Assembly (NCBI GenBank): GCA_030834185.1 | Contig: JAURFT010000004.1 | Coordinates: 1-62,634, forward strand | Source: Candidatus Nanopelagicales bacterium | GTDB lineage: Bacteria; Actinomycetota; Actinomycetes; S36-B12; UBA5976 | Direction of reading: 5' to 3' | Length of the DNA stretch: 62,634 nucleotides | Shown: positions 2,774 through 39,865 of the stretch, piece by piece | How the letters are laid out: every line of letters begins with the position of its first letter | Position numbering within the stretch: position 1 is the first letter of the stretch | Made by a program: the position numbers and the translations under genes | Notes under the pieces: generated by a model | What the model was told of the DNA's origin: nothing | What the model saw: the letters and a program-made list of their open reading frames with translations, nothing else | Databases searched by the model: none

Positions 2774-4066
2774 CTAAAGGTCAATAACGCTATATGGTTT
2801 TGATTTGTTACGAGAATGCGTATCTAGGCTAATCAAAATGACTACAATCGAAACTAAAATTACAGATACTCCCCCAAGCATTAATGTTTCTTGTGGTCCA
2901 AAAAGATCAGCAAATAAACCTACCGCCGGCCCACCAATAGCCATACTGCCGCTAAACACAACTGTGTAGATGCCAAGAATTTTGCCTCGAATTGCATATG
3001 GCGTGTGATGTTGGATAAGCGAGTTTGCAGCGATTGTTGTGAGCAGCGCAAATAATCCAGAAAGCCCCAGCATCGCGGCATAACTCACAAGTGTTGGCGA
3101 GGCTCCTGCTCCCAATTGCCACACTCCAAACAACAGCGCAGTGGCAGCAAGTTTAACAACTGGCACACTGGAGTTTCTGTGTGCTGAAATCAATCCACCA
3201 AATAGTGCACCAATTGCAGTAGTTGAACTCAGTAAGCCGTAACCGGCAGCTCCTAGTCCAAAGATATTTACTGCAACTAATGCAGTTGTAATTTGAAAGT
3301 TAAGTCCAAAATATGCCAGCGTAGCAACGATGAACATTGCTTTAACAATAGCTTTGTCAGCCCAGATAAATTTTAAAGTCGCAAAGAAATTAACATCATC
3401 TTTAGCTACCTCATGAGTTGTATGCAAACTACCATTTCGAGCACTTAAAATCAGTACAGCAAAAAACGCGTAGGCCAATGAGCTAGCAAATAATGACGCC
3501 GGCACTCCTAATACACTAACCGTAATACCCGCTATGGCTGGTCCAATAATTCGGGCCAGATTGAAATTCACCGAATTCAAACTCACCGCATTTGATACAT
3601 TTTGTTCACCAACTAAATCTGACATTAGTGAATGACGAATAGGCATATCAATTGCCGAAAATATTCCCACAACCAGAGCAAAGGTATACACAATCCAAAC
3701 CTTTTGATTCTCGGTGAAAACTATTGCAGCCAAAGTCAAGCCACTTAGTGAAATTACAGCAGAGCAGATTGCCAATATCTTCTTTTTGTTATATCTGTCT
3801 CCAAGGCTTCCGCCATAGAAGCTAAAGAAAATTGCAGGTGCAAACTGCAAGCCGGTGATAATGCCCAGCGCAACTCCGCTGCCCGTTAACTCAAGAATTA
3901 ACCAATCTTGGGCAATGCGATGCATCCAGGTGCCAAGATTCATCACAAAAGTACCAGTTGCATATTTGCGATACTGTCGAAAATCCAAAGACACAAAGGT
4001 TCGCTTTGAAGCAGTTTTTATCGATACTCTTTCAGAGGCCCGATTAGCACTTCGCTTAATTTGCAT
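2774..4066 (-). CDS. MFS transporter (MFS_3/DHA3-like)
   Basis: About 12 TM; GTWMHRIAQDWLILELTGS, GSLGDRYNKKK motif A; paralogue of 48776..50041. Confidence 0.9.
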   Translation of the reverse strand: MQIKRSANRASERVSIKTASKRTFVSLDFRQYRKYATGTFVMNLGTWMHRIAQDWLILELTGSGVALGIITGLQFAPAIFFSFYGGSLGDRYNKKKILAICSAVISLSGLTLAAIVFTENQKVWIVYTFALVVGIFSAIDMPIRHSLMSDLVGEQNVSNAVSLNSVNFNLARIIGPAIAGITVSVLGVPASLFASSLAYAFFAVLILSARNGSLHTTHEVAKDDVNFFATLKFIWADKAIVKAMFIVATLAYFGLNFQITTALVAVNIFGLGAAGYGLLSSTTAIGALFGGLISAHRNSSVPVVKLAATALLFGVWQLGAGASPTLVSYAAMLGLSGLFALLTTIAANSLIQHHTPYAIRGKILGIYTVVFSGSMAIGGPAVGLFADLFGPQETLMLGGVSVILVSIVVILISLDTHSRNKSKPYSVIDL

Positions 4067-4084
4067 TAAATTTTCAGTCAGAGA

Positions 4085-4888
4085 TTACTTGTTGTAATCC
4101 CTGACCAGTTCAGCCTTGAGGTCAGTTGTCCAACCACGTTGGAAGTAGTAGGAACTTACGATTTCGGTTGGCTGAAAGGCTTCTAGCTCCTCATTGCTGC
4201 CATCTAGGAAATTAACAAAACCATCACCTTTCCAGGCATTAATCGTGGTGGCATTGCCCAGGTTTAGTCCAAATAAATGCTTGCTATCTGGTACATCAGG
4301 AGATGGCGATGGCAGGTATCGATATGTGTAGATACGGTGGCCGTACGACGGAATACCATCATCTGGCAATTTCTCAGTTAGCGTGATTCCCATATCAACA
4401 ATTCTGGTACCAAAGCGATCTACTTGACCACGAAGTCGGGTACCAACTCCAAGCTTTGGCAATCCTGGGTTTGCTGGCTGCAGTTTGGTCTTAAATACCT
4501 GAGCTTGTTTTTTTGCAAAACCCATGTAATGACCAAATACCACTGACCATTCTTCGGAGACCCAAATAAATGCACTGAATCGTCCTGGCACGTTGTCGTA
4601 CTTAACGTAAAAGCCAACTAGGCCCTCGTTGTATTGAGTGCGTTGTGGTTCGTCAAATTCTTGACCTGGATGTGATTCGCTGACTTTCACCATATCGGCA
4701 ACATATACATAGCCTAAACAATCATCTGTTAATGATAAGCCTTCTGGCAAGTAAGGGGTGACAACTTTTGGATCAACGCGGAAGTTAACTTGAATTGCAT
4801 CTGCACTAATGTGGTGTGGCGGGTTTTCAACTAGTGAAGCTTTGCCATTTGGTGATACTGGATTTCCAAAACCGATTGGACCAACCAT
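4085..4888 (-). CDS. Acetoacetate decarboxylase (ADC)-like family protein
   Basis: QYNEGLV segment, GHYMGFAKK Schiff-base Lys region, YRYLPSP, size about 270 aa. Confidence 0.75.
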   Translation of the reverse strand: MVGPIGFGNPVSPNGKASLVENPPHHISADAIQVNFRVDPKVVTPYLPEGLSLTDDCLGYVYVADMVKVSESHPGQEFDEPQRTQYNEGLVGFYVKYDNVPGRFSAFIWVSEEWSVVFGHYMGFAKKQAQVFKTKLQPANPGLPKLGVGTRLRGQVDRFGTRIVDMGITLTEKLPDDGIPSYGHRIYTYRYLPSPSPDVPDSKHLFGLNLGNATTINAWKGDGFVNFLDGSNEELEAFQPTEIVSSYYFQRGWTTDLKAELVRDYNK

Positions 4889-4926
4889 GCTGAAAGCTCC
4901 TTTTCATAAGTACAAAAAAAATGATT

Positions 4927-4942
4927 TGTGACTTGGGTCACA
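4927..4942. promoter_or_regulatory. CRP/GlxR-family binding site
   Basis: TGTGA-CTTGGG-TCACA, perfect TGTGA-N6-TCACA, in a divergent intergenic region. Confidence 0.7.
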
Positions 4943-4964
4943 ACCTTTAAAACCCTGCGCTTTT

Positions 4965-4994
4965 AGTATAGGCTTCCACGAAGTTCGAGGTCAA
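4965..4994 (-). promoter_or_regulatory. Housekeeping-sigma promoter for the ADC-MFS operon
   Basis: Minus strand TTGACC-N18-TATACT. Confidence 0.55.
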
Positions 4995-5045
4995 GAGTAT
5001 TTAATCTGTTATCGACAAACCAGAACCAACTCTGAAGGGTTTGAA

Positions 5046-6068
5046 ATGAATATTGACACGCATTCACACTATTGGCCAAAAAGTTTTCTTCAAGCCATGC
5101 ACTCTGGAAAGGATTTTTTTGGCTGGAAGCCAGAAAAAGTTGGCGGCAAATTAGCAATCTCACTTGGTGAAACCACACTCACATTTCCAGTGCCTGAGAC
5201 TGATCTAGACGATTTAGATACAAGATACGAAACTCGAAATGCTTATCAACCCATTTCAATGGAAGCTCTTCAAATTGTTGGTTTTCTTTGGTGCCAACAT
5301 TTAGATGAGACAGATGCAGCAAAATACACATCTCTTGTTAACGATGAGCTCAGCGCAGTCCAAGCAAAGCGACCAGATCGCTACCGCGGCTTAGGGCTTG
5401 TGCCAATTCAAAGTGTGGAACTAGCAGAGCGAGAAATTAAGCGGTTGAAAAATGAATTAGGAATTACTTCACTAGCAATGCCAACTTCATATCGGGATCA
5501 AAATTCCGATGAAGGCAATCTACTAAAAATCATTGAAATTGCAGCAAAAGAAGATATGTCAATGTCATTTCATGCAACTTACTTAAATCCTGTTGGCAAC
5601 GATCGGTATCCAAGGTATTACTTCATGAATAGCTTTGGAGCTCCAGCTGAAACATCACTTTCTTTAATGTCACTTATTTATTCTGGCTTTTTTGATCGCT
5701 TCCCAGAAGCTCGAGTTCAATTCATGCAAGGTGGTGGCTGCGTGCCATACAGCGTGATGCGGTTTACGCAACGTTACGAAGAACGTGAAGACTGCCGCGT
5801 AATGGCAGAACCGCCACATAAGTATTTAAATAAAATCTATTTTGACTGCCTAACCCATGATGATCTATCACTGCGCTTGCTGATTAATCGTGCTGGAATT
5901 GACAAAATTATGATTGGCACTGACTATCCATTTAAGAGCGATCATCCAGGTGGATCATCAAATTGGATTCGCTCTGGAGTGTTAGAGCCAGACGAAATCG
6001 AGCAAGTTGCTTATAAAAATGCAGCTAGATTCCTAAAACTACCAAAAGATCTTCTTCCTGCCTCATGA
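5046..6068 (+). CDS. Amidohydrolase_2 family protein (ACMSD-like decarboxylase/hydratase)
   Basis: DTHSH, SFHAT, MQGGG (His replaced by Gln), IYFDCL, GTDYPF. Confidence 0.9.
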   Translation: MNIDTHSHYWPKSFLQAMHSGKDFFGWKPEKVGGKLAISLGETTLTFPVPETDLDDLDTRYETRNAYQPISMEALQIVGFLWCQHLDETDAAKYTSLVNDELSAVQAKRPDRYRGLGLVPIQSVELAEREIKRLKNELGITSLAMPTSYRDQNSDEGNLLKIIEIAAKEDMSMSFHATYLNPVGNDRYPRYYFMNSFGAPAETSLSLMSLIYSGFFDRFPEARVQFMQGGGCVPYSVMRFTQRYEEREDCRVMAEPPHKYLNKIYFDCLTHDDLSLRLLINRAGIDKIMIGTDYPFKSDHPGGSSNWIRSGVLEPDEIEQVAYKNAARFLKLPKDLLPAS

Positions 6069-7294
6069 GCGTAAAGCACCTTGACTATGTTGGTGATCGA
6101 ACCGCTGCCAACAGTGCGCTAATTGTGATAGATGTGCAGTGCGCATTTACCGAAAGCTCACTGTTTGGCATCGCTTCAGCTCAAAGCGTGCTTGACAATA
6201 TAAATAGTGCAGTTGATCGTGCTCGAGGGCTTGGTATGCCAGTGATCTGGGTGCGTTATCAAGTTCGCACCGAGGTTGGACTAGGACTAACCAGTAAGCG
6301 TTATGGCGTTGAGGATCTGCATACTGGCGAAGGCACTGAGCTGGATCCACAGCTGCATTTTGTGCCTGGTGATGAAGTGATTATCAAGCCAAGACAGAGT
6401 TCGTTTTACGCCACCGATTTAGAGTATTTGTTGCGCAGCAAGGGTATTAAGTATGTCTGCATAGCAGGAGTGACAACAAATGTCTGTGTGCTTGCAGCTG
6501 TAAAAGATGCCAGTGAGCGAGATTTCGCCGTTACGATGTTAGAAGACTGCACAGCAGCTTTACCAATTCTGCGCGATGAGGTTGAAGTCATGAGTGCCGC
6601 AGAAGTACAAGCTGCCGCTTGCAACTTCATACGTTGGGCATATGGTCCAGTTGAAGATCATAAGAGCGTATTTGATCAGATTGAAGCCAATGCAAACTTT
6701 CAAGCAGCACCAGTTGAACAAAAATCTGCGCTAATCATTATCGATCTACAAAACACTTTCACTCAGCCAACGTCACCACTTTCAGTTGAAGCCGCTCATG
6801 AACTCATTGATAGCATCAATAAGTTAGCTGAAAAAGCGCGTATCCAAGGAGTTCCAGTTATCTGGGTAAAACGCGAAGATCGCAGCTCAGTTGGGCCAGG
6901 AATCACTGCAAGCAGATATGGAAGAACTGGAATTCACCGTGATGGCGGTGCTCAATTTGATAGCAAGCTCGATTTGCAGCCTGGTGATTTAACCCTAACT
7001 AAGCGTCGACAGAGTTCGTTTTATTCCAGCGACCTTGAGATTGTGCTGCGCGGGCTAGATGTCACCAGACTTTACTTAGTTGGGGTCACAACAAATGTAT
7101 GCGTACTCGGTACTGCGAAAGATGCTGCTGAGCGAGATTTTGATGTGAATGTGGTTGTTGATGCAACAGCATCACTACCGATAGTTGTGGATTCAGAAAC
7201 TAAATTATCTACAGCTGACACGCAATTTGCCGCTGTTAATTTCATTGCTTGGGCATATGGAAAATTGGTAAACTCAAAAGACATCTTCAACTAG
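6065..7294 (+). CDS. Tandem two-domain isochorismatase-family cysteine hydrolase
   Basis: Two repeats, each with the Asp-Lys-Cys triad: IDVQ/IDLQ, KPRQSSF/KRRQSSF, GVTTNVCV. Confidence 0.9.
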   Translation: MSVKHLDYVGDRTAANSALIVIDVQCAFTESSLFGIASAQSVLDNINSAVDRARGLGMPVIWVRYQVRTEVGLGLTSKRYGVEDLHTGEGTELDPQLHFVPGDEVIIKPRQSSFYATDLEYLLRSKGIKYVCIAGVTTNVCVLAAVKDASERDFAVTMLEDCTAALPILRDEVEVMSAAEVQAAACNFIRWAYGPVEDHKSVFDQIEANANFQAAPVEQKSALIIIDLQNTFTQPTSPLSVEAAHELIDSINKLAEKARIQGVPVIWVKREDRSSVGPGITASRYGRTGIHRDGGAQFDSKLDLQPGDLTLTKRRQSSFYSSDLEIVLRGLDVTRLYLVGVTTNVCVLGTAKDAAERDFDVNVVVDATASLPIVVDSETKLSTADTQFAAVNFIAWAYGKLVNSKDIFN

Positions 7295-7303
7295 GAGCCG
7301 AAC

Positions 7304-8656
7304 TTGTATAAATCACCGCTTGGAGATCTGCGCAAATCAGTTGATGAGATTGCGAGCTATCAGGATCAAGCACTGGCCAAAATGACTAAATTAATAGCTC
7401 AAAACCACCCTCACTACAAAGCCAAATATTCTCAGCTTGGGCTAGATATCGCGAGCATAACCACTTTAGCCAAGCTGGAATCAATTCCTGTTACTGAAAA
7501 AATGGAGTTTGTAAATAGCCCAGAGAACTTTCGAATGCAGTCAGCTATTGATGCGCCAGATGAATATGTAATTTGGGATATTGTTTATACAGCAGGCACC
7601 AGTTCCTCGCCCACTCCGATCTACCAAACCAGCTACGACTTCCGCGGTATTTTGTTGGCCCAGGTTCGAATGGCTGAGATTCGTGGGATGAGTAACAAGT
7701 CACGAATTATGAATCTGTATCCAATCACTGCCCATCCGCATGGAGCTTGGTTGCGAGCAAACAATGCTGCTGCTGCACTTGGTTGTGCCATAACTGCTGG
7801 TATGAGTGGCAGGGACTTTGGTTCGTTTGAGCTAACTCGAAAAACTGCTGAGATTGTTGAATTGACACTGCAATCAAATCCAACTGCGCTCTGGGGCGTG
7901 CCTTCATATATCCGCGAAGTGTTAAGTCAGATCTTGGCAAAAGGTGGCAAACTGCCTGCGTTGGACATGATTGCCGTTAGCGGCGAGCCTTGCACCCAAG
8001 CAATGCGAGCTTCGCTTACTGAATTAGCTGAAAGTGTTTCTGATGTCCCAGTTGTAGTTTCAGACAGCCTTGGTGCCTCTGAGCTGCAGTGTGGATTAGT
8101 TGAATGTACCCTGGGTGCTGGTTTTCATAATCCCGCACCCGAACTATTCTTACTAGAAGCACTGGATGAGAACGGCAAGCGAGTATCTGAGGGTGAAATT
8201 GGTAGTTTGGCAATTACCCATCTTGATCGACGTGGCACTGTTTTGCTGCGTTATTTATTAGGTGACAAAGTTCAGATTACTTATGAAAACTGCGATAATT
8301 GTGGTCGCGGTGGCGGCAGAATTGTGGCGCATAAGGGCCGCGAAGGTCGCTTTACCAAAATTCGTGGCAATATGGTAAATCTTGATGAACTGTTAAAAAT
8401 ATTGGCTGATGATAAAGCAATTGTCGAGTACCAAATAGAGATTCATAAGCAGTCAAAAACTGATCCACTTTCACTAGATGAACTAACTGTTCGAGTTGTG
8501 CCTGGTGCGGGCTGTGACACAGCTGCAATTGGAAAACGGGTTGCTGCCGCAATCAGGATTACTCCTGTGGTGCAAGAAGTAACTCGAGATCAGATTTGGG
8601 GAAACAACACAAGTTTGAAAGCAACCAGAATCATTGACTCTCGTGACTACAACTAA
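7304..8656 (+). CDS. Phenylacetate-CoA ligase (PaaK)-like adenylate-forming enzyme
   Basis: YTAGTSSSP P-loop, SGEP, LGASE, LLRYLLGD, CDNCGR, C-terminal KATRIIDSR. Confidence 0.85.
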   Translation: MYKSPLGDLRKSVDEIASYQDQALAKMTKLIAQNHPHYKAKYSQLGLDIASITTLAKLESIPVTEKMEFVNSPENFRMQSAIDAPDEYVIWDIVYTAGTSSSPTPIYQTSYDFRGILLAQVRMAEIRGMSNKSRIMNLYPITAHPHGAWLRANNAAAALGCAITAGMSGRDFGSFELTRKTAEIVELTLQSNPTALWGVPSYIREVLSQILAKGGKLPALDMIAVSGEPCTQAMRASLTELAESVSDVPVVVSDSLGASELQCGLVECTLGAGFHNPAPELFLLEALDENGKRVSEGEIGSLAITHLDRRGTVLLRYLLGDKVQITYENCDNCGRGGGRIVAHKGREGRFTKIRGNMVNLDELLKILADDKAIVEYQIEIHKQSKTDPLSLDELTVRVVPGAGCDTAAIGKRVAAAIRITPVVQEVTRDQIWGNNTSLKATRIIDSRDYN

Positions 8657-8682
8657 GTAAAAGCCTAATTAAGGACCTAAAA

Positions 8683-9708
8683 ATGACCTCAGTTCAGCCA
8701 ATAGGTGAAGTAATTGATACCCACTCCCACTATTGGCCAGACGGCATGGTTGCGCAGTTAAAAGCTGGGAAGTTATGGCATGGCTGGGAGTTAACTAAAA
8801 CATCAACTGGCAAATCAGCTGTTGCACGCGGAGCTCGCGTAGCTCCTTTTGAATTTGATGAATACGCTGGAGATCTAACCCTACGTCGAGCTAAGCGGCT
8901 TGAACTAGAAAATATCTCAGCTGAGCTGCTGATGGTGCCTTCTTTTTTATGGGGTTATGAAATGCCAGCAGCTGATGCAGCACCAATGTGCCGCGATATC
9001 AATCGTGAAATGGCTCAAGCCAGCATAACTACAGCCGGAAAAGCCATTGGGCTAGGAGTAGTTCCGCTGCAAGATCCAAAACTCACTGCTACAGAAGCTG
9101 AGTTTGCAGTAAAGGAACTTGGTATTACAGCATTTGCAATTGGTACCAGTGTGGATAAAAAATCCTTTGATGACCCAACTGTGCAAGCCTCGCTATCGGT
9201 GTTGTTTGAAACTGGGTTACCCGTTTTAATCCATGGTGTTTATTTTGACCGGATTGCAGCTGAACGGCTGCCAAATTATTATTTTGGTAACTCGTTTTCC
9301 GTACCGTTAGAAACCAGCGTTGCGCTAATGTCGCTGATCTTCTCAGGTCTACCAGACCAATTCCCAGACCTTCGCCTAGCCACCTCGCACGGCGGAGGTT
9401 GGATTCATTATGGCTTGGGTCGCTTTGAGATGCGATTAGCTCATGGTCACGATCGGGGAAAGATGCAAGGCATGCCATCGGAATATTTAAAGCGTTTCTA
9501 CTACGACTGCTTGGTGCATGATCCAGATACTTTGGCATATTTGATAAGCAAAGTAGGTATTGATCAGATTCTTATCGGCACAGACTTCCCTTTTGGTGGT
9601 GACATTATTGGTGGTTCATCGAATTGGATTAATAATATGCCATTCTTGGACCAAATCGATAAGCAAAAAATCTTCTCTCAAAACGCCAAGAGATTTATGG
9701 GTTGGTAG
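8683..9708 (+). CDS. Amidohydrolase_2 family protein (ACMSD-like)
   Basis: DTHSH, LIHG, SHGGG, YYDCLVH, GTDFPF. Confidence 0.9.
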   Translation: MTSVQPIGEVIDTHSHYWPDGMVAQLKAGKLWHGWELTKTSTGKSAVARGARVAPFEFDEYAGDLTLRRAKRLELENISAELLMVPSFLWGYEMPAADAAPMCRDINREMAQASITTAGKAIGLGVVPLQDPKLTATEAEFAVKELGITAFAIGTSVDKKSFDDPTVQASLSVLFETGLPVLIHGVYFDRIAAERLPNYYFGNSFSVPLETSVALMSLIFSGLPDQFPDLRLATSHGGGWIHYGLGRFEMRLAHGHDRGKMQGMPSEYLKRFYYDCLVHDPDTLAYLISKVGIDQILIGTDFPFGGDIIGGSSNWINNMPFLDQIDKQKIFSQNAKRFMGW

Positions 9709-9736
9709 TCTGTCAAGAAATAATCAAATATATTTT

Positions 9737-11550: not shown

Positions 11551-11551
11551 G

Positions 11552-31521: not shown

Positions 31522-31533
31522 TAAGGAAGCCAA

Positions 31534-31905: not shown

Positions 31906-33260
31906 CTTGCTTTAGCAATTGCTTTGGCAGCTAAATAGGCAAATCCAACTGCAGCCAGCAATCCATTGCCAGCTAAATAACCAGCTGAACCATGTCCGCT
32001 AATTCCCACAGCTGCCCCGCCTGCGGCATAAAGGCCTGGAATCAAATTACCTGCTTTATCTAAAACTGCAGCATCACTGTTTACTTTCAATCCACCTTGA
32101 GTGTGAAACAGCGATGGGCGCAGCTTGATCGCACCAAATGGTGCTATCAATTGCTTCTCAAACCGAGCCCGACCAAATTCATCAACAGCCTTACCGCTGT
32201 GCACAGCTGCAGCAGCAGCTGCAGCATTAACTAGTTTCTCAGCTGGTAGCTCAATTAATTCTGCTAGCTGAGTTAATTCATCTGCCCAAATAATTGCGCC
32301 GCTATCAGCTGTAACTTCAAACTCTTTAAATGACATTGAGCCATCATGAATCTCTTTATCAATAATTAACCAACCGCTGCTTTCAGGTTGATTGTTTAAG
32401 ATTGCCGCATACTCTGAGTAACCAGCAGATTCATCACCAAATCGGTCGCCAGCTAAATTTAAAATAAAACCGCCTTGCATCACAGTTGCCCACCCAACCA
32501 ATGTGTTGGCATGGCTAGCAATTGCCGCATGGCCTTGATACGCATCTAAATAACCAGTTGCAGCGCCAAGCCGCTCACCTATTTCTAAAGCTTCGCCATT
32601 GGAATAAATCGAGCCGTGATAATAAACCTGGGCAATTTCAGCGTTATATTTATCTAACAGCGCTTGATTAGCGCCATAGCCATTTGTTGCCAGCAGCACG
32701 TTTTTAGTTGCGATCTCAGATCTGCTGCCATCTGGGTTCTCAACCACTGCAGCAGTTACTCCAGTTTTGTCCAAGATCACATCAATTAATCGCGTACTGG
32801 TTTTAAAATCAAAATTCCCAGCAGCTTTTGCGCTATCCCAAATTGGTTGCATAACTAGATAGCCTTTTCGGCCCGTAACAGTTAAGCAGCGATCAACGCT
32901 ATGTCCTGGGTAATGAAAATCAGTTACTAACTCCCATGGAACACCAAGTGCATCTGCCATCCACTCTAAAACTTCAACGCTTACTTCAGTTAATGCTTTG
33001 GTGGCAACGGGATCTGCTGAATTTTTAGTTTTCTTCATGATGTCTTGGGTAAAAATTTCAGGTGAATCTGTTATTCCTGCAGCTTGCTGCCAGCGTGATC
33101 CAGCAGCTGGAAACATTCCTGTTGTTTTTGAAGTATTGCAAGTGGTAACAAAATCAGGTGAAGCATCAACTAGTAATACCTTTAAGCCCAGCTCTGCGGC
33201 TTTAATTGCGCCAATTAAGCCACCACCAGCACCGGCAATTACAACATCATAAGTTGTCAA
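31902..33260 (-). CDS. FAD-binding oxidoreductase, flavocytochrome c / fumarate reductase / TcuA family
   Basis: DVVIAGAGGG, LATNGY, RFGDES, FHTQGGL, IPGLYAAG, GNGL. Confidence 0.85.
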   Translation of the reverse strand: MTTYDVVIAGAGGGLIGAIKAAELGLKVLLVDASPDFVTTCNTSKTTGMFPAAGSRWQQAAGITDSPEIFTQDIMKKTKNSADPVATKALTEVSVEVLEWMADALGVPWELVTDFHYPGHSVDRCLTVTGRKGYLVMQPIWDSAKAAGNFDFKTSTRLIDVILDKTGVTAAVVENPDGSRSEIATKNVLLATNGYGANQALLDKYNAEIAQVYYHGSIYSNGEALEIGERLGAATGYLDAYQGHAAIASHANTLVGWATVMQGGFILNLAGDRFGDESAGYSEYAAILNNQPESSGWLIIDKEIHDGSMSFKEFEVTADSGAIIWADELTQLAELIELPAEKLVNAAAAAAAVHSGKAVDEFGRARFEKQLIAPFGAIKLRPSLFHTQGGLKVNSDAAVLDKAGNLIPGLYAAGGAAVGISGHGSAGYLAGNGLLAAVGFAYLAAKAIAKAS

Positions 33261-33269
33261 ACCAGCTCC

Positions 33270-33890
33270 CTAGTTGGATGAAATTAATTGCAGTGCGAGC
33301 TCGGCTGGATCAACAACTTCTAGCCTTAAACGATCTTGCTGTACATTTACAGCAGAGCAGCCATTGATTACCACTGTCGCGCCTTGCGATGCCAGGCTGT
33401 CAACCGCTTTGGTTAATGCTTCATGCCAAAGTTCTTCATCATTTATGGCATCAAAACTTAAATTCAACACTTCTCGACCAGCATAGTTTTTTGCAAAGCC
33501 ATATTCAGCGACCCTGCGCTCAAGCTCAGCACCAATCGCTTCGTTGCGAGTTACCGCGCCAATTTTATGACCCTTCGCAGCTAAGTGTGCGAGCACATTT
33601 TGCAACATTCCAACCACTTGGCTCTCTGCTTCCAATCTAAATCCTGGATCAAGAACGCAATCTGGCATTACATAATCAGCTCCAGCTTCACTGGCACTAC
33701 TTAATTCGGTGAGCAAGCTGGCGTCACTTGCTCGAACATCAGTTGGGGTATCTAAAGCGGTAGGACTGCCCTGGGTCAAATTTCGCAGTTCGACTGTTAC
33801 GCCGCTTGGCGCAATTCTGTTGTAACGCTGCTGGCGGCGTTCAAGTTCAGCTGCAGTGACGTGAATTGGGGTGATGGAAACAATCTTCAT
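33270..33890 (-). CDS. Asp/Glu/hydantoin racemase family protein
   Basis: Two-Cys motifs DCVLDPG and NGCSA, VVDP; start moved to the ATG with AGGAG SD (MKIVSITPIH). Confidence 0.8.
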   Translation of the reverse strand: MKIVSITPIHVTAAELERRQQRYNRIAPSGVTVELRNLTQGSPTALDTPTDVRASDASLLTELSSASEAGADYVMPDCVLDPGFRLEAESQVVGMLQNVLAHLAAKGHKIGAVTRNEAIGAELERRVAEYGFAKNYAGREVLNLSFDAINDEELWHEALTKAVDSLASQGATVVINGCSAVNVQQDRLRLEVVDPAELALQLISSN

Positions 33891-34018
33891 TTGCGCTCCT
33901 ATGCGTTGGAATAAGCATACTGCGTGCTTGGCTGCTTGCAGCAACTTCCAAATTTCCAGAACCAAATTGCAAGCACTACGATATGAGGGAAAACCTCAAC
34001 TCAGGGAGCGATTAGCAG

Positions 34019-35206
34019 ATGACCCAAGCACTGCAGGATATAAAGGTAATAGATATGGCAACGCTGTTTGCCGGGCCTATGGCTGCCACCATGCTGGGAG
34101 ATTTTGGTGCTGATGTTATAAAAATTGAGCATCCAAAAAATGGAGACCCGGTTCGAACCCATGGCTCAAGTAAAAATGGGGTTGGGCTGTGGTGGAAGAT
34201 GTTGTCGCGCAATAAAAAATCTGTCACGTTATATCTAGGCTCCCCTGAAGGTCAAGAGATTTTTAAAAAGCTCGTAAAAGATGCTGATGTTGTAATTGAA
34301 AACTTTCGCCCCGGCACTTTGGAAAAATGGGGCTTGGGCTATGACGAATTAGTAAAAATCAATCCGAAATTAGTTTTAGCCAGAGTTACTGGCTTTGGCC
34401 AGATTGGCCCGTATGCCACTCGCCCAGGCTTTGGCACGCTAGCTGAAGCGATGAGCGGGTTTGCTTCAATTACTGGAACTGCAGATGGGCCACCAACCCT
34501 GCCACCATTTGGTTTAGCGGATGGTATCTCAGCGCTAACAACTGCCTATGCAATTATGACGGCGCTACATGCACGAAATATCACCGGCAAAGGTCAGGTA
34601 ATTGATTTAGCAATTATTGAACCGATATTAACCGTGCTAGGTCCGCAAGTAATTGCATACGATCAACTTGGTGAGATTCAAGAACGCCGGGGAAATCGCT
34701 CCAGCAACAACGCGCCACGAAACACCTACATCACTGCCGATGGCAAATGGGTAGCAATTTCAACAAGCGCGCAAGCAATCGCTGAACGAGTGATGCATTT
34801 AGTTGGTCGGCCAGAGTTAATTGATGAGCCTTGGTTTGCGTCTGGAGCTGAGCGCGCTAAGCATGCCGACGAGTTAGATGAAGCAGTTGGTGGCTGGATT
34901 GCGCAGCGAAATCGCGATGAGGTGATGGCGGAGTTTGAAGCAGCGCAGGCTGCCGTTGCTCCAATTTATGACATTACAGATATTTTTAAAGACGAACAGT
35001 TTTCTGCGCTTGGCACAATTAAAACTGTGCAAGATGAAGAACTGGGTCCTATTAAATTTCAAAATGTGCTGTTTCGATTATCAGATACGCCAGGGGCTAT
35101 CAACACTGCTGGTCCAAGCTTAGGTAAGCACACAAAAGAGGTGCTTAATAAATATGGCATCAGTGATGATCAAATTGCTGAGCTGAAAACTAAAGGCGTG
35201 GTTTGA
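34019..35206 (+). CDS. Family III CoA-transferase (CaiB/BaiF)
   Basis: AGPMAATMLGDFGADVIKIEHP..GD, RNKKS, ENFRPG, GFGQIGPY. Confidence 0.93.
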   Translation: MTQALQDIKVIDMATLFAGPMAATMLGDFGADVIKIEHPKNGDPVRTHGSSKNGVGLWWKMLSRNKKSVTLYLGSPEGQEIFKKLVKDADVVIENFRPGTLEKWGLGYDELVKINPKLVLARVTGFGQIGPYATRPGFGTLAEAMSGFASITGTADGPPTLPPFGLADGISALTTAYAIMTALHARNITGKGQVIDLAIIEPILTVLGPQVIAYDQLGEIQERRGNRSSNNAPRNTYITADGKWVAISTSAQAIAERVMHLVGRPELIDEPWFASGAERAKHADELDEAVGGWIAQRNRDEVMAEFEAAQAAVAPIYDITDIFKDEQFSALGTIKTVQDEELGPIKFQNVLFRLSDTPGAINTAGPSLGKHTKEVLNKYGISDDQIAELKTKGVV

Positions 35207-36057
35207 GCATGAATGAGTTAAATTACTTCAGAAGTTATTTATATGTGCCAGCGAGTAAGCCTGAGATTGTGGCTAAGGCTTTTAATTCTGATGCAGATTG
35301 TGTGGTTATTGACCTTGAAGATGCAGTTCATGTTGATAGTAAAACTGCAGCAAGAGAGTTTGTGGCAGAATTTCTAAAAACAAAAGCCCCAAAGCCATTT
35401 TTAGTTCGGATCAATGATCCAAATGGCGCCTGGGGAATGCTTGACCTGGAAGCTATTGCTTCTGAAAATCTATTTGGTGTTCGAATCCCAAAAATTTCAA
35501 GCATCGAAACGATCAAAACTGCAGCTAAAGTTTTTGATGCTGCCAAATCAAACGCGCAGATACATTTATTAATTGAATCAGCACTTGGTGTGCAGAACGC
35601 ATTTGAGCTAGCAACTGCAGATCCAAGAGTTAAAGCGATCTCATTAGGAGAAGCTGATCTTGAATCAGATCTTCGCGTTACAAATGATGAGGCACTTAAG
35701 TATTCTCGAAACGCAATTGTGGTTGCAGCAAGAGCTGCTGGGTTAAAACAGCCATCGCAATCAGTTTTTCCAAATACGAAAGATATAGCTGGCTTAACGG
35801 CCTCAACCATTGCTGGTAAAGCTGCTGGCTTTTTTGGCCGATCAGTGATTCATCCAAGCCAGGTTGCCGTTGTGAATGAAATTTTCACCCCTACCGCACA
35901 AGAAGTTGAGCAAGCTTTGCAGTTGCTCAGTTGGTATGACCAGATGCAGGCATCGGGAAATAGTGTGATGGCGCTACCAAATGGTGATTTACTAGATCCT
36001 GCAAATATTCATTATGCGCGTTTTCAAGTTTCGCTTAATCAGCAATTATTAAACTAG
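35203..36057 (+). CDS. CitE/malyl-CoA/citramalyl-CoA lyase family protein
   Basis: RSYLYVPA, IDLEDAV, LIESALG, LGEADL, GRSVIHPSQV. Confidence 0.9.
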   Translation: MSMNELNYFRSYLYVPASKPEIVAKAFNSDADCVVIDLEDAVHVDSKTAAREFVAEFLKTKAPKPFLVRINDPNGAWGMLDLEAIASENLFGVRIPKISSIETIKTAAKVFDAAKSNAQIHLLIESALGVQNAFELATADPRVKAISLGEADLESDLRVTNDEALKYSRNAIVVAARAAGLKQPSQSVFPNTKDIAGLTASTIAGKAAGFFGRSVIHPSQVAVVNEIFTPTAQEVEQALQLLSWYDQMQASGNSVMALPNGDLLDPANIHYARFQVSLNQQLLN

Positions 36058-36065
36058 GAGCACAG

Positions 36066-36875
36066 ATGGCAAGCCTAATTGTTCAAGCATTAAGTAATGC
36101 GGTGCAAATAATTGATTTATCACAGCCGCTTTACAGCGGTATGCCAACCTCCCCCAATCATCCTGAGTTTCGATTGTCATACCTTCGACGCCATGGCGAT
36201 ATGGTGCGAGCAGATGGTGGTTCAGCCGCAAATGAAATGATCGTGACCGGCGGACATGTTGGCACCCACGTTGATGCGCTAGCTCATGTCTCACAAGATG
36301 GCATGGTTTATGGCAATGTGCCAGTTTCAGATTGTTTTCAAAATGGCAAATTTGTTACCCACGGCATCGATCAGATGCAACCTGTTGTAACTCGCGGTAT
36401 CTTTTTAGATATTGCCGCTTTAAAAGGTGTTCATATTTTGCCAGGTGGCTACGCCATTACTGCTGACGATCTGCAAGCGGCCTGTGATCAAATAGGCGCA
36501 ACGCCAAACCCAGGTGATGCGGTAATTATTAGATCTGGCTGGGGTAAGCATTTTGCGGTTGATGCAAGAACTTATATCGGACATGACTCAGGGGTGCCTG
36601 GTGTTGATGAATCTGCTGGAAAATGGCTAGCTGAGCGCAAAATTAGTGTTACTGGATCAGATACAACTGCCTATGAACATATCGCAGCTGGCAAAGGCCA
36701 CAGCGTGTTACCAGTGCATCGAATTTTACTTGTTGATGCTGGTATTCATATTATTGAACATATGCATTTAGAAGATGCGCATGCTGCCAAGCTGACTGAA
36801 TTTATGTTTATTCTGGCTCCGCTTAAAATTCTTGGCGCAACAGGTTCGCCAGCTCGGCCATTGGCGGTAATTTAA
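36066..36875 (+). CDS. Cyclase family (kynurenine formamidase/isatin hydrolase-like) metal hydrolase
   Basis: HVGTHVDA, GSDT, PVH..LL...GIHIIE, GATGSP.RP. Confidence 0.9.
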   Translation: MASLIVQALSNAVQIIDLSQPLYSGMPTSPNHPEFRLSYLRRHGDMVRADGGSAANEMIVTGGHVGTHVDALAHVSQDGMVYGNVPVSDCFQNGKFVTHGIDQMQPVVTRGIFLDIAALKGVHILPGGYAITADDLQAACDQIGATPNPGDAVIIRSGWGKHFAVDARTYIGHDSGVPGVDESAGKWLAERKISVTGSDTTAYEHIAAGKGHSVLPVHRILLVDAGIHIIEHMHLEDAHAAKLTEFMFILAPLKILGATGSPARPLAVI

Positions 36876-38275
36876 TGTCAACAATTGCAGAGCAGCTTGG
36901 CGAAGTTGCATATCAAATCACCCAAAATGGTTTATCCGATGAGCTGCGTCGCGAATCAGCGCGTCGAGTTTTAGATGTAATTGGTAATTCGCTTGCTGCT
37001 AAAGATCAAGCTGCAACTGAAGTTGTTCGTAATGTTGTCTTAGCTTGGGAAGGGCCAGCAGATTCTTTTGCCATTGGTGCTGGCAAATTACCTGCTGCTG
37101 CAGCTGCGCTGCTTAATGGCACGCTGGCACATGCGATGGATTTTGATGACACACATCTGCCTTCAGTTTTACATCCCAGCGCATCGGTAGTTCCTGCAGC
37201 GCTAGCTGTTGGCGCAAAACTTAAGTCCAATCCAACTGATGTGATGGATGCAATTGCATTTGGTATTGAAGTCACTTGCCGATTGGGGATGGCAGGCTAT
37301 GACAAAAAATTAGGTAACTCAGTATTTTTTGAACGTGGTTTACATGCAACTTCCATCTGCGGCACACTAGGTGCGGCAACAGCTGCAGCCATGCTTTACA
37401 AATTAAGCGCAGCGCAGATTACTTCGGCAATTGGAATTGCTTCTAGCATGGGAGCGGGATTACTTGAAGCTAATCGCACCGGTGGCACAGTTAAACGAAT
37501 GCACTGCGGTTGGGCGGCCCACGGCGGTGTGGTGGCAGCTGAGCTTGCTAAAGCTGGGCTAACTGGTCCGCCAACTGTGATTGAAGGTCGATTTGGTTTT
37601 ATGCAGGCATATTGCGGTGATCAAGTAAATCTTGCCGAGCTAACCGATGACCTTGGCACTAGCTGGGTGCTGCCAGGATTATTTTTTAAACCATACCCTT
37701 GCAATCACTTCACTCACACCGGCATCGATGCGGCGCGACGAATGAAAGCTAACGGCATCACTCCAGATCGAATCGAGCGCTTAGAGCTTGGTGTTCCCAC
37801 CCCCGTGCTTAGAACTATTGCTGAGCCACGAGAAGCGAAAATTAAACCTGAGTCTGGTTATCACGCTGCCTTTAGTGGCCCATATACAGTTGCAGCTGCT
37901 TTTTATCGAGATCATGGACTTGGGTTATTCCATGAAGACTTTGAAGATGAAGCAGCTCATGATCCAGAAATTTTGGCATTAGCGGCAAAAGTAAATGTTT
38001 CAGCAAATGCTTCCTGCGATGAAATATTTCCGCACCAATTTCCAGCAGTGCTAACCGCATATCTAAAAGATGGCAGCAGCATTACCGAGCGGGTGCTCGT
38101 TAATCGCGGTGGACCGCAAGATCCGCTATCAGATGCCGAGCTTGCACTGAAATTTGAATCTAATGCGCGCTTAGCAATCTCTAGTGAGCAAGCAGCAAAA
38201 ATTGCGCAGAGTATTTTTGGTTTTGCCACTAATTCCAGCAGTTTGGACCAATTAGCCCAGCTGCTTGAGGGTTAA
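36875..38275 (+). CDS. MmgE/PrpD family protein
   Basis: NGTLAHAMDFDDTH, HPS, KRMHCG, EGRFG, KPYPCNHFTH. Confidence 0.92.
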   Translation: MSTIAEQLGEVAYQITQNGLSDELRRESARRVLDVIGNSLAAKDQAATEVVRNVVLAWEGPADSFAIGAGKLPAAAAALLNGTLAHAMDFDDTHLPSVLHPSASVVPAALAVGAKLKSNPTDVMDAIAFGIEVTCRLGMAGYDKKLGNSVFFERGLHATSICGTLGAATAAAMLYKLSAAQITSAIGIASSMGAGLLEANRTGGTVKRMHCGWAAHGGVVAAELAKAGLTGPPTVIEGRFGFMQAYCGDQVNLAELTDDLGTSWVLPGLFFKPYPCNHFTHTGIDAARRMKANGITPDRIERLELGVPTPVLRTIAEPREAKIKPESGYHAAFSGPYTVAAAFYRDHGLGLFHEDFEDEAAHDPEILALAAKVNVSANASCDEIFPHQFPAVLTAYLKDGSSITERVLVNRGGPQDPLSDAELALKFESNARLAISSEQAAKIAQSIFGFATNSSSLDQLAQLLEG

Positions 38276-38401
38276 CGGGCGGTTTCGGGTGATCTGGGCT
38301 GGAATTGAAGAAATAGAGATTTAGGTCACAAAGCTGTCGCCTTGCTACCTTTGTTAGCTATGCCCTAGCGTATCCACACCTCGACATTAGGAGACCCAAA
38401 A

Positions 38402-39865
38402 GTGACTGCCTTTGATTTAGTTATTAAAAATTCTTTAGTAGTTAAGCATGATCAGGCACAACCACTGGCAGTAGATATTGGTATCAAAGACGGCAAGATC
38501 ACCAAACTAGAAGCCAATATTGCAGCAAGTGATGCTAAAGAAGTTTTTGATGCTGGCGGCAAGTTGGCGTTTCCAGGTGTGGTTGATGGACATCAGCACT
38601 GGGGTATTTACAACCCACTCGATATCGACACTGCGTCTGAAAGCAAGGCGTGTGCGCAAGGTGGCGTAACAACTGCGCTTTCTTATATGCGCACTGGCCA
38701 TTACTACATGAACAAGGGCGGCTCTTATCTTGATGTGTTCCCAGAGGTGCTTGAGCAAACCGCTGGACGTGCTTATGTTGATTACGCATATCACCTAGCT
38801 CCGTTAAGCGCTGAGCACCTAACCGAGATTCCAGAGTTGATCTCTAAGCATGGCGTTAATTCATTTAAGATTTTTATGTTCTACGGCAGCTATGGCCTGC
38901 ATGGTCGATCAACTTCACAAAATGAATTTTTAATGATCCCAGAAGGTGAGCGCTACGACGTTGCTCACTTTGAATTTGTAATGCGCGCAATTCAAGCAGC
39001 TCGAGTTAAAATGCCTGAAATTGCTGACACAATTTCTTTGTCACTGCATTGTGAAACAGCAGAGATCATGACTGCCTATACCAAGATGGTTGAAGAATCT
39101 GGTCGACCAAAAGATCTTGAGGCTTATCACCTATCTCGCCCACCACATTCTGAAGGATTGGCAATCACAATTGCCTCTTACCTGGCTCATGAAACCGAGC
39201 TGCCAAATATCAACTTACTGCATCTAACATCATTTAAAGCAATTGATGCGGCAATGAAAATGACGCTCGCTTTCCCACATGTTAACTTTAAGCGCGAAGT
39301 AACTATTGGCCACTTGTTGGCAGATATCAAAAACTCTAAAGGCGTTGGCGGCAAAGTGAATCCACCGCTTCGCCCACGCGAAGATGTGGAAGCGCTTTGG
39401 GAGCATTTATTAGCGGGCAACATCGACTGGGTGGTTAGCGATCATGCCTGCTGTAAAGATGAGCTTAAGTTTGGTAGCCCACGCGAAGATGTCTTTGTTG
39501 CTAAATCGGGCTTTGGTGGCGCTGAATACCTGCTTCCGGGACTTGTTAGCGAGAGCAAAACGAGAGATCTCAGCTATCAAAAGATTGCTCAGCTTGCCTC
39601 TTGGAACACAGCTCAGCGCTATGGCCTAAAGAATAAAGGTGCGATTGCACTAGGTTATGACGCTGACATTGCAATTGTGGATCCAAACACTTCTTATGTG
39701 GTTAAGGCTGAAGATTCACTATCAGCTCAGGAGTACACCCCATTTGAAGGATTTGAGTTAACGGCAAAAGTAACTGACACTTTCTTGCGTGGAAACCAAA
39801 TCTTTGGTGGCGGCAATGTGCTTGGCGCACCACTTGGAAAGTATCAGTTCCGACCAACTGCTTAA
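38402..39865 (+). CDS. Cyclic amidohydrolase (allantoinase/hydantoinase/dihydroorotase family)
   Basis: PGVVDGHQH, SFKIFM (carboxylated Lys), LHCE, LHLTS, KVNPPLR, SDHA, KGAIALGYDAD. Confidence 0.88.
   Translation: MTAFDLVIKNSLVVKHDQAQPLAVDIGIKDGKITKLEANIAASDAKEVFDAGGKLAFPGVVDGHQHWGIYNPLDIDTASESKACAQGGVTTALSYMRTGHYYMNKGGSYLDVFPEVLEQTAGRAYVDYAYHLAPLSAEHLTEIPELISKHGVNSFKIFMFYGSYGLHGRSTSQNEFLMIPEGERYDVAHFEFVMRAIQAARVKMPEIADTISLSLHCETAEIMTAYTKMVEESGRPKDLEAYHLSRPPHSEGLAITIASYLAHETELPNINLLHLTSFKAIDAAMKMTLAFPHVNFKREVTIGHLLADIKNSKGVGGKVNPPLRPREDVEALWEHLLAGNIDWVVSDHACCKDELKFGSPREDVFVAKSGFGGAEYLLPGLVSESKTRDLSYQKIAQLASWNTAQRYGLKNKGAIALGYDADIAIVDPNTSYVVKAEDSLSAQEYTPFEGFELTAKVTDTFLRGNQIFGGGNVLGAPLGKYQFRPTA

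Follow-up and report, generated by a model that had tools for sequence, protein, structure and literature searches.

The window analyzed here, i.e., the whole 62,634-base contig (C88, JAURFT010000004.1) of a Candidatus Nanopelagicales genome (GCA_030834185.1, designated G000), carries between positions 2774 and 39865 a 34-gene region of 37 kb that is best read as a flexible island occupying a variable site on the chromosome of this streamlined actinobacterium of the Nanopelagicales type. This region consists of two separately inherited units, designated Unit L (2774..25693, a block of 21 genes) and Unit R (25700..39865, a block of 13 genes), whose enzyme content is not matched by any of the described pathways with which it was compared. 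We lean, with slightly more confidence than doubt, towards a role for the island in feeding on cyclic ureides, imides or heterocyclic carboxylic acids via an undescribed route.

The G000 genome comprises 1.34 Mb on 142 contigs, with a completeness of 86.6%, an estimated contamination of 4.1% and a GC content of 44.6%. The island constitutes 2.8% of this genome and exhibits a GC content of 44.6%, while its flanks are at 42-43%.

A genomic island of two units

The right flank of the island (42700-62634, 19.9 kb) was alignable to all seven congeners searched (completeness 66-94%), and in congener G003 82% of it aligned at 70-74% identity; this part of the contig carries mtrA-mtrB-lpqB, hpf and the gene for S-adenosylhomocysteinase. 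On contig C32 of G003, homologues of left-flank and right-flank genes enclose approximately 10 kb without the island, and the cargo found at this site consists of a sugar-type ABC importer and two alpha-amylase-family genes (L016, G003:C32:36000-53000, at about 3700-13600). Since G003 holds a sugar importer and alpha-amylase genes at this position, the island site is considered to swap whole substrate-use cassettes. The two traits of flexible islands, i.e., conserved flanks with different cargo and a patchy distribution at odds with relatedness, are both observed here; a pangenome comparison had been proposed as a check of island status in a first-pass annotation of this DNA.

Islands of this kind are known from Planktophila, in which additive and replacement islands (GI1-GI5) place 3-50 variable genes between conserved flanks of streamlined freshwater actinobacteria, while Nanopelagicales islands often carry ABC transporters and niche-specific metabolism and the additive ones are flanked by tRNAs (PMC12817590, in its available part). 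The window site resembles the Planktophila islands in that it holds other cargo in a congener, whereas it differs from them in lacking an adjacent tRNA, in its 34-gene enzyme cargo, which is not reported in the available part of that source, and in the cross-family occurrence of Unit L.

The distribution of the two units is different. Unit L DNA from 2774 to 20000 matched only one of the seven congeners, and there only a 250-base stretch of an ABC gene, while within 20000-39865 no match to these congeners was found before approximately 25,700. Furthermore, PaaK-like ligase 2 of this unit was matched in one of 40 relatives, at 26% identity, and its Amidohydro_2 protein (c) has a close orthologue in none of the 92 genomes searched from the window's family of 93, two of which hold a 35% homologue. 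Unit R, in contrast, occurs on contig C13 of congener G001 with all 13 genes collinear at 59-87% protein identity (median 79%); G004 possesses the cyclase, PrpD and cyclic amidohydrolase genes (80-88%) directly beside the same right-flank gene, with more pieces on two other contigs, and G006 holds one piece. The cyclic amidohydrolase was detected in two of the 92 family genomes, both of them congeners. The 37-kb region, previously taken to be a single entity, is thus composed of two units with different inheritance.

Carriers of Unit L were identified through a scan of species-representative genomes, in which a single ligase protein as query returned nothing while an alignment of PaaK-like proteins returned 78 loci. 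Unit L is carried by three of the genomes concerned, metagenome-assembled genomes (MAGs) labelled ‘Actinobacteria bacterium’ (G041), ‘Candidatus Planktophila sp.’ (G042) and ‘Actinomycetota bacterium’ (G043), which lie outside the 93-genome family of the window, since the family search gave no close match. When 60 kb of G041 was compared to the 34 window proteins (E<=1e-20, coverage >=50%), 28 were matched. These include all 21 Unit L proteins, in the same order and at 63-92% identity (median 78%), and the unit is likewise collinear in G042 and G043. They also include seven proteins of Unit R (35-68%, median 57%), which are rearranged and adjoin Unit L, while the SDR, the NMT1-type ABC genes, the old yellow enzyme (OYE) and the SnoaL-like protein were not found in these 60 kb; G043 also carries pieces of Unit R genes. 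As in G000, Unit L is thus found beside Unit R genes in G041-G043, an association that speaks for a functional coupling of the units. Within the larger and different family of G042, the Unit L marker was present in two of 401 sampled genomes, namely G042 itself and one with a 56% homologue.

The similarity of Unit L across these lineages is far above that of their genomes. DNA alignable to G041-G043 amounts to 56-63% of the island as compared to 6-9.5% of the core flank, one of the searches having been run at a stricter E-value limit that affects short hits only. LpqB, for example, is 45% identical in G003, 25% in a same-family genome and without a match in G041-G043 (E<=1e-10), while the trypsin-PDZ protease, which shares 71% identity with its counterpart in G003, finds only a partial 36% match in G041. 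Because of this contrast, Unit L is read as having been gained from another family by horizontal transfer among freshwater and brackish actinobacteria. The paralogy of the island, which had been considered surprising for a tightly packed genome, is, on the evidence of protein identities, not the outcome of recent duplication, since the paralogues are just 33-53% identical and pair off one to one with separate orthologues in another lineage.

The island is not a misassembly, since independent contigs reproduce 20 kb of it: in one independent DNA run, a single contig of 23,489 bases extends across 6000-25999, from which it differs in 99 letters, and a second DNA run covers the same interval in a few contigs. 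Near-identical DNA for all or part of 16100-26000 occurs in 20 of the runs listed, which come from 12 studies; 14 of these runs contain at least half of the sampled words, and two of them may be the source of the window DNA. The habitats on record are estuary, lagoon, ‘marine’ and aquatic, in addition to one crustacean-associated metagenome. Two metatranscriptome libraries contributed 20 and 22 short contigs, located on 14 and 16 of the 30 bins of 6000-25999, which represents a weak hint of transcription only; island parts without such cover carry no meaning. Of separate note, one extra A follows position 15118 in all three covering runs (one RNA, two DNA). This site lies in the intergenic spacer that separates the genes for the binding protein and the 2-hydroxyacid dehydrogenase, and the additional base is due either to strain variation or to an error of the window sequence in a homopolymer.

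Gene content and predicted active sites

The 34 non-overlapping open reading frames (ORFs) at 2774-39865 are arranged in five divergently transcribed operon pairs, with 97.1% of the DNA coding and a biggest gap of 164 bp. The earlier inventory of these genes was reproduced item by item from the ORF list, Pfam and NCBIfam, and the description of the region as catabolic and regulator-free was upheld: no helix-turn-helix (HTH), integrase, Rieske, flavin-monooxygenase or molybdoenzyme family was detected among the island proteins (Pfam, E<=1e-5), and neither a riboswitch (Rfam, E<=1) nor a tRNA was found inside the island, the sole tRNA of the window being a tRNA-Leu at 55964, 16 kb away. A search of the genome with tblastn (E<=1e-6, coverage >=40%) returned no second copy of either Amidohydro_2 class, nor of the isochorismatase, PaaK-like, acetoacetate-decarboxylase (ADC), PuuE, M29, cyclase, PrpD, CitE, family III CoA-transferase, FAD_binding_2, racemase, cyclic amidohydrolase or NMT1 binding proteins. 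As these special enzyme families have no other copy in the genome, their clustering in the island is far beyond chance.

The six Amidohydro_2 proteins (Pfam, PDB) fall into two classes. Class 1 comprises proteins a (5046..6068), b (8683..9708) and f (23037..24074), all encoded on the plus strand, which are ~340 residues long and share 33-46% identity with each other. Their full-length PDB match is to human and Pseudomonas ACMSD (E 9e-59), with weaker matches to gamma-resorcylate, 5-carboxyvanillate, isoorotate and dihydroxybenzoate decarboxylases and to the LigJ hydratase. The Zn ligands of ACMSD (His-x-His, His, Asp) are kept in all three, while the catalytic His is present in b and f and is a Gln in a; the equivalent of human Arg235 is invariant, and the Arg47 position is occupied by Pro, Glu or Lys, the residue roles and numbering being those which we take to hold for ACMSD. 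Class 2 comprises proteins c (18314..19180, plus strand; 90% identical in G041), d (19184..20044, plus strand) and e (20033..20902, minus strand), which are ~288 residues long, share 38-53% identity and lack the HxH motif. Their best PDB match is to BB4693 of Bordetella, an uncharacterised protein (3IRS, E 1.6e-23), and the next matches are to the decarboxylases also found for class 1 (E ~1e-11) and to hydratases.

Judging from these relationships, none of the six Amidohydro_2 proteins can be called a C-N hydrolase. The view that the region is dominated by C-N hydrolases therefore does not hold, as three of these proteins are ACMSD-type relatives and three resemble BB4693 only, which leaves six of the 34 proteins in predicted genuine amide-hydrolase families (two isochorismatase-like proteins, the PuuE-like and M29-like proteins, the cyclase and the cyclic amidohydrolase). 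As a general caution for annotation, Amidohydro_2 and M29 labels should not be taken to mean ‘amidase’ or ‘aminopeptidase’.

The three isochorismatase domains of the island reside in two cysteine hydrolases, i.e., a tandem two-domain protein (6065..7294, plus strand; two PF00857 matches) and a single-domain protein (16186..16785, minus strand; PF00857). The Asp-Lys-Cys triad is intact in all three domains, which score below the cut-offs of the BiuH and RutB models, yet find in these their nearest models. The PuuE-like ring amidohydrolase (20954..21898, minus strand; Pfam, NCBIfam), which has a polysaccharide-deacetylase fold, matches PuuE in the PDB over residues 21-313 (E 6.7e-85), with 345 bits to TIGR03212 as compared to a cut-off of 424.6. 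The two PaaK-like adenylate-forming ligases (ligase 1, 7304..8656, and ligase 2, 16895..18283, both on the plus strand; Pfam, NCBIfam and alignment) are 41% identical and reach 70 and 64 bits with TIGR02155 (cut-off 646), the FlxY model likewise remaining below its cut-off for ligase 1. Across 30 members of this ligase family from several phyla, Lys451 and the set Cys279-His286-Cys341-Cys344 are invariant; the Cys/His set looks like a structural metal site by its pattern, and we know of no such site in PaaK.

The M29-like metallohydrolase (21898..22872, minus strand) matches PF02073 with 60 bits over residues 129-288 only. Its best PDB match is the 2,5-dihydroxypyridine dioxygenase NicX (7CN3, E 1.1e-8), ahead of aminopeptidase T (E 0.004). 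In the alignment with 7CN3, Glu and Ala occupy the first two positions of the NicX mononuclear iron site, which we take to consist of His265, Ser302, His318 and Asp320, and only the His and Asp are kept. A comparison of 22 diverse homologues from the subfamily showed no variation at Glu254 and a conservation of 90% or more at Glu188, His280, His297 and Asp299. Assignment as a NicX-type dioxygenase was rejected, as the protein keeps peptidase-type ligands and not the NicX iron site; it is read as a hydrolase of an uncharacterised subfamily with the two-metal pattern of M29. The earlier statement that the region encodes no oxygenase consequently stands at family level, with the reservation that the nearest solved structure of this protein is NicX, although its ligands are peptidase-type. 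Homologues on plasmids of other organisms (33-36% identity) are located beside genes for TcuA, PrpF, enolase-superfamily proteins, aldehyde dehydrogenase, CoA-transferase and carboxylate transporters, and no peptide genes adjoin them in the plasmid contexts examined. Because these homologues adjoin tcuA-prpF or enolase-superfamily genes, the ‘aminopeptidase’ label is probably wrong for this subfamily. Haloarchaeal plasmids also carry such homologues (L108 in Haladaptatus and L099 in Halorussus, 34-36%), where they follow tcuA-prpF or precede an enolase-superfamily gene.

The remaining genes of Unit L encode, on the minus strand, an MFS transporter (MFS_3/MFS_1 by Pfam, 2774..4066; its G041 orthologue is 69% identical), an acetoacetate-decarboxylase-like (MppR-like) protein (4085..4888; PF06314 116 bits, TIGR04460 93 bits with a cut-off of 380, 89% identical in G041), a Dpp/Opp/Nik-type ABC importer (9737..15080; Pfam, NCBIfam) composed of two ATPases, two permeases and an SBP_bac_5 binding protein (13395-15080), and a D-2-hydroxyacid dehydrogenase family protein (15210..16166; PF02826). 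On the plus strand, the start of an L-glutamate gamma-semialdehyde (P5C) dehydrogenase gene (24071..25693) is overlapped by the 3' end of the gene for Amidohydro_2 protein f. This dehydrogenase is the only one of the 34 proteins to reach an NCBIfam equivalog cut-off (TIGR01236, 652.2 bits, cut-off 613.6), and it is one of five oxidoreductases in the island (15210, 24071, 25700, 29533 and 31902).

Unit R opens with an SDR oxidoreductase (25700..26443, minus strand; Pfam) and a NitT/TauT-type ABC importer (26446..29487, minus strand; Pfam, NCBIfam) consisting of a permease, an ATPase and an NMT1-like binding protein (28084-29487); with the importer and MFS transporter of Unit L, the island thus encodes two ABC importers and one MFS transporter. 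For the binding protein of the Dpp-type importer the nearest solved proteins are an unnamed substrate-binding protein, the opine binders AgaA and AccA, and NikA, while the NMT1-like protein exhibits weak PDB matches to a Bordetella exported protein and ThiY; all of these are too distant to indicate a ligand. The two binding proteins, which are otherwise unrelated, have in common an N-terminal stretch (two Cys, a Lys-rich run and a Trp; 35% identity over 102 amino acids) directly after the signal/membrane segment, and this stretch may be a common anchoring element or mini-domain of exported proteins in this lineage.

Next to the importer lies a FadH-type OYE Fe-S flavoenzyme with an FMN domain and an FAD/NAD(P) domain (29533..31521, plus strand; Pfam, NCBIfam), which possesses the CxxCxxxCx11C cluster motif at residue 342 and falls short of named equivalogs (504 bits vs 793). 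It is followed by a SnoaL/NTF2-like protein of 123 amino acids (31534..31905, plus strand; weak PF12680 match, E 5e-4), which is 80% identical in G001 and 52% in Microbacterium, an FAD_binding_2 flavoprotein of the flavocytochrome-c/TcuA-like type (31902..33260, minus strand; Pfam, NCBIfam) and a protein of the Asp/Glu/hydantoin-racemase family (33270..33965, minus strand; PF01177, 63 bits). The latter represents a new subfamily with no PDB match at E<=1e-3, and its Protein Atlas clusters are labelled Asp/Glu/hydantoin racemase at family level only. NCBIfam at E<=1 returned nothing useful for the racemase-family, SnoaL-like, M29-like and Amidohydro_2 proteins.

The final five genes, all on the plus strand, encode a family III CoA-transferase (34019..35206; PF02515 416 bits, mesaconate CoA-transferase model 226 bits with a cut-off of 700), an HpcH/CitE-type acyl-CoA C-C lyase (35203..36057; RipC model 160 bits, cut-off 375), a cyclase-family (kynurenine-formamidase-like) metal amidohydrolase (36066..36875; PF04199) with the motif HxGTHxDxxxH, an MmgE/PrpD-family protein (36875..38275; Pfam), for which IRG1, IDS epimerase and cis-aconitate decarboxylase are the closest proteins of solved structure, and a hydantoinase/allantoinase/dihydropyrimidinase-like cyclic amidohydrolase (38402..39865; Amidohydro_1 by Pfam). 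The cyclic amidohydrolase carries the full binuclear-metal set (HxH, Lys, His, His, Asp), presumably the metal ligands including a carbamylated Lys, while its NCBIfam scores remain below the cut-offs of AllB (213/358 bits), ErtD (204/650), dihydropyrimidinase (180/393) and dihydroorotase (179/452). Judging from the predicted active-site residues, the enzymes in which these were compared (the ligases, the cysteine hydrolases, the cyclase, the cyclic amidohydrolase, the OYE, the M29-like and the ACMSD-like proteins) look active.

Related gene clusters and described pathways

The gene combinations of the island were found to be conserved and widespread, with regulators accompanying them in larger genomes and absent from the streamlined genome. 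For example, a 21-kb Microbacterium locus (L027) combines homologues of the cyclic amidohydrolase (65% identity), the SnoaL-like protein (52%), PrpD (50%), the cyclase (51%), CitE (33%) and the CoA-transferase (53%) with a PaaK-like ligase (44%), a BB4693-like protein (55%), an NMT1-type binding protein and ATPase, and an FAD_binding_2 protein, and in addition encodes an IclR regulator, an M20 peptidase and a flavin reductase. The ADC-like, ligase and NMT1-type ABC genes occur together at five loci of Dactylosporangium and at one of Microbispora, joined by the CoA-transferase gene where the contig reaches it and, in five of the six, by a BB4693-like gene; an IclR regulator is present in Dactylosporangium L021, the only one of these annotated with Pfam. 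In Proteobacteria the ligase-amidohydrolase pair occurs either with Liv-type ABC importers and a thiamine pyrophosphate (TPP) enzyme or with an SDR and a FadH-type OYE. Plasmids of Variovorax and Roseomonas carry this pair together with genes of the MmgE/PrpD, FAD-binding, CoA-transferase and isochorismatase families, accompanied by IclR or GntR regulators.

A BB4693-like gene neighbours the ligase gene in at least 30 of the 78 PaaK-like loci, a family III CoA-transferase gene in at least 15, an ACMSD-like gene in at least 13 and an isochorismatase gene in at least nine, counts that are lower bounds because many of these loci lie on short contigs; in high-GC loci, ORFs were called with a GC3 filter and annotation is incomplete. 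The PaaK-like ligase and the BB4693-like Amidohydro_2 protein are flagged as a widespread and uncharacterised pairing. The conservation of gene sets in G041-G043 and G001 also disposes of the possibility, raised in the first-pass annotation as a refutation, that the combinations occur nowhere else and form a chance mosaic.

Hydantoin (hyu) and reductive pyrimidine catabolism proceed from a reductase via a cyclic amidohydrolase to an N-carbamoyl hydrolase, with hydantoin racemase as an additional component. The island is similar in possessing a cyclic amidohydrolase with a full ligand set, a racemase-family protein, an ene-reductase-type flavoenzyme and ureido-hydrolase-like enzymes, and its Microbacterium relative shows a further hyu-like trait in that an M20 peptidase gene separates the regulator gene of the cluster from its ABC-ATPase gene. 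It differs in lacking an M20 or CN-hydrolase carbamoylase, in a reductase that is FadH-type and not a dihydropyrimidine dehydrogenase, in scores that all remain below the equivalog cut-offs, and in its PrpD, CoA-transferase and lyase genes, which have no role in those pathways.

The maleamate pathway (nic, pic) employs the Amidohydro_2 decarboxylase PicC, the dioxygenase NicX, the isochorismatase-type amidase NicF and the maleate isomerase NicE. The same four folds are joined in the island (ACMSD-like, M29/NicX-fold, isochorismatase-type and racemase-family), whereas its M29-like protein keeps Glu188, Glu254, His280, His297 and Asp299, its racemase-family protein is unlike the solved isomerases and a hydroxylase is absent. 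The overlap of ACMSD-like gene f (23037) with the aldehyde dehydrogenase gene at 24071, together with the kept Zn ligands and Arg235 equivalent, is reminiscent of ACMSD and aminomuconate-semialdehyde dehydrogenase in the kynurenine and 2-nitrobenzoate pathways, yet the island dehydrogenase is of the P5C type by NCBIfam cut-off, the Arg47 equivalent is not kept and there is no dioxygenase to make ACMS. Likewise, the family III CoA-transferase adjoining a CitE/RipC-like lyase, with a PrpD/IRG1-family protein in the same operon, recalls itaconate or C5-dicarboxylate degradation (Ict, Ich, Ccl/RipC), from which the island differs in its scores below the RipC and mesaconate CoA-transferase cut-offs and in the lack of a MaoC-type hydratase.

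The island thus fails a defining test of every pathway compared, and no described pathway fits. This agrees with the earlier inability to map the gene set to a known route, as do the single protein of 34 at an equivalog cut-off and the full-text literature, in which searches (supplements lying outside their reach) for the gene combination, BB4693, Nanopelagicales with ureides and microbial cyclic-imide enzymes yielded nothing relevant. The available part of PMC4016543 concerns a different purine route.

A candidate catabolic route and its alternatives

In the favoured reading, for which we infer both substrates and order of steps from the enzyme families present, the NitT/TauT-type importer of Unit R would take up a small unsaturated cyclic amide of the hydantoin, dihydropyrimidine or imide type. 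Reduction of an activated double bond and adjustment of the substrate would then fall to the FadH-type Fe-S flavoenzyme together with the SDR and the SnoaL-like protein, and the binuclear-metal cyclic amidohydrolase would open the ring. The racemase-family protein might invert or isomerise the substrate or product, while the cyclase-family metallo-amidase would take off a residual amide, carbamoyl or formyl group. What results would be a di- or tricarboxylate, to be reshaped by the TcuA-like flavoprotein and the PrpD/IRG1-like protein before the family III CoA-transferase activates it and the CitE-type lyase cleaves it to central metabolites.

Unit L may add uptake through the Dpp/opine-type ABC importer and the MFS transporter, as well as parallel modules for related substrates, in which the two PaaK-like ligases paired with Amidohydro_2 proteins and the three putative ACMSD-type non-oxidative decarboxylases would act. 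Its hydrolytic parts would be the three cysteine-hydrolase (ureido/amide) domains and the PuuE-like and M29-like hydrolases, accompanied by the ADC-like Schiff-base enzyme, and the P5C dehydrogenase would deliver glutamate as the exit product. In sum, the nitrogen would end up in ammonia and glutamate, and the carbon in CoA esters and keto acids, without a canonical oxygenase; expression is probably constitutive. The O2-independent hydrolytic, reductive and CoA-based route for N-heterocycles, ureides or aromatic amides that had been suggested earlier is therefore plausible in its logic, given the metal site, the triads and the FadH-type motif, and is not proven.

Several observations weigh against this reading. 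In the clusters of relatives, IclR regulators occur, as do TPP enzymes, enoyl-CoA hydratases and ABC importers of the branched-chain type, contexts that are typical of aromatic or organic-acid catabolism, and because of such partners the substrates might contain no nitrogen; distant M29-like homologues similarly sit with TcuA, PrpF, enolase-superfamily and carboxylate-transporter genes and not with amide substrates. Apart from the P5C dehydrogenase, all enzymes score below the NCBIfam equivalog cut-offs, which thereby name no substrate, and three BB4693-like proteins among the twelve key hydrolase-like proteins are without any characterised relative. As regards the history of the island, no mobility gene or tRNA was found at its borders (Pfam, tRNA search), the transfer argument draws on identity contrasts in place of tested phylogenies and uses MAGs with a completeness of 57-98%, and Unit R lies in a different context in G001, so that even its ‘vertical’ history is not simple. 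Finally, the RNA contigs could be DNA carry-over.

The most serious rival, which we nonetheless hold to be improbable, is that the island serves to break down acids without nitrogen (hydroxy-aromatic, alicyclic or branched polycarboxylic), for instance of lignin or humic origin, by non-oxidative decarboxylation, CoA ligation, FadH-type reduction and lyase cleavage, with the ‘amidases’ acting as esterases or lactonases or on side groups. Such a route would be in keeping with ACMSD, LigW, gamma-resorcylate decarboxylase and LigJ hydratase as relatives of the Amidohydro_2 proteins, with the PaaK-like ligases and the TcuA-like and PrpD-like proteins, and with homologous clusters in which IclR, TPP enzymes and enoyl-CoA hydratases accompany TTT, TRAP or Liv-type carboxylate importers. 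It is at odds with the lack of ring-cleaving dioxygenase or beta-ketoadipate-type genes (Pfam), with a PuuE-like protein as close to allantoinase as E 6.7e-85, with the full metal site of the cyclic amidohydrolase and cysteine hydrolases nearest to the ureido-hydrolases BiuH and RutB, and with a P5C dehydrogenase that points to an amino-acid end product. We consider it somewhat less probable again that all 34 genes form a single O2-independent, C-N-hydrolase-dominated pathway for one class of N-heterocycle or ureide. The six genuine amide-hydrolase proteins with intact catalytic residues, the reductive and CoA enzymes and the lack of a canonical oxygenase family (Pfam) would suit it, but the units L and R differ in phyletic pattern, three transport systems and parallel paralogous modules are present, and the six Amidohydro_2 proteins are decarboxylase-like or without an assigned function.

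Biosynthesis of a secondary metabolite or siderophore was also considered, as the MppR-like protein, adenylating enzymes, isochorismatase, SnoaL and cyclase folds and an EntS-like MFS exporter might suggest, and is judged very improbable: the NCBIfam resemblance to MppR, FlxY, BagE and EntS is weak, with scores far below the cut-offs, carrier protein, NRPS and PKS families are absent by Pfam, two binding-protein-dependent importers are present, the isochorismatase domains carry a cysteine-hydrolase triad, and the P5C dehydrogenase and CoA-ester lyase are catabolic enzymes. A chance mosaic, mis-binned contig or misassembly without joint function, to which the 142 contigs and 4.1% estimated contamination of the MAG and the borders without mobility genes could lend credence, has been largely refuted and carries the least weight of all, in view of mtrA-mtrB-lpqB and 20 kb of congener-syntenic DNA on the same contig, the independent 23.5-kb contig reproducing 20 kb of the island, and the gene order kept in G041, G042, G043 and G001.

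A more specific proposal, which we regard as a long shot, is that Unit R and the set of PaaK-like, BB4693-like, PrpD, FAD-binding and CoA-transferase genes that recurs from Actinobacteria to Proteobacteria constitute an undescribed pathway for alkyl-substituted cyclic imides. Candidate substrates, suggested by enzyme chemistry only and singled out by no tool result, would be methyl- or carboxyethyl-maleimides such as hematinic acid, which are photo-oxidation products of chlorophyll, haem and bilins. Here the FadH-type ene-reductase would saturate the maleimide, the cyclic amidohydrolase would serve as imidase and the cyclase-family or cysteine hydrolases as half-amidases, after which the racemase-family, TcuA-like and PrpD-like proteins would convert alkyl-maleate or alkyl-succinate, and the CoA-transferase and CitE-type lyase would yield pyruvate or acetyl-CoA. 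If true, abundant lake actinobacteria would be tied to the turnover of tetrapyrrole debris.

Outside the island, three features of the right flank were recorded. A pseudouridine-5'-phosphate glycosidase gene (Indigoidine_A family) followed by a PfkB kinase gene (50718-52513) looks like a pair for pseudouridine salvage or catabolism. A CbiM-CbiQ-ATPase transporter of the energy-coupling factor (ECF) type adjoins the tRNA-Leu (53343-56048), with no riboswitch there (Rfam, E<=1). Between mtrA and the S-adenosylhomocysteinase gene, two long ORFs on opposite strands overlap (60717-61695), the plus-strand ORF with a GPDPase_memb domain and the minus-strand ORF without a family; in all likelihood just one of them is a real gene.

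Actinobacteria of the Nanopelagicales type rank among the most abundant bacteria of fresh water, and their diet of dissolved organic matter has largely been guessed from genomes. Catabolic clusters without an assigned substrate are common; the region described here offers concrete targets for a new substrate class in its two binding proteins, the cyclic amidohydrolase, the PuuE-like enzyme and the ligase-amidohydrolase pair, and, being well delimited, conserved and open to testing, is a candidate for a catabolic route not yet described in this very abundant group.

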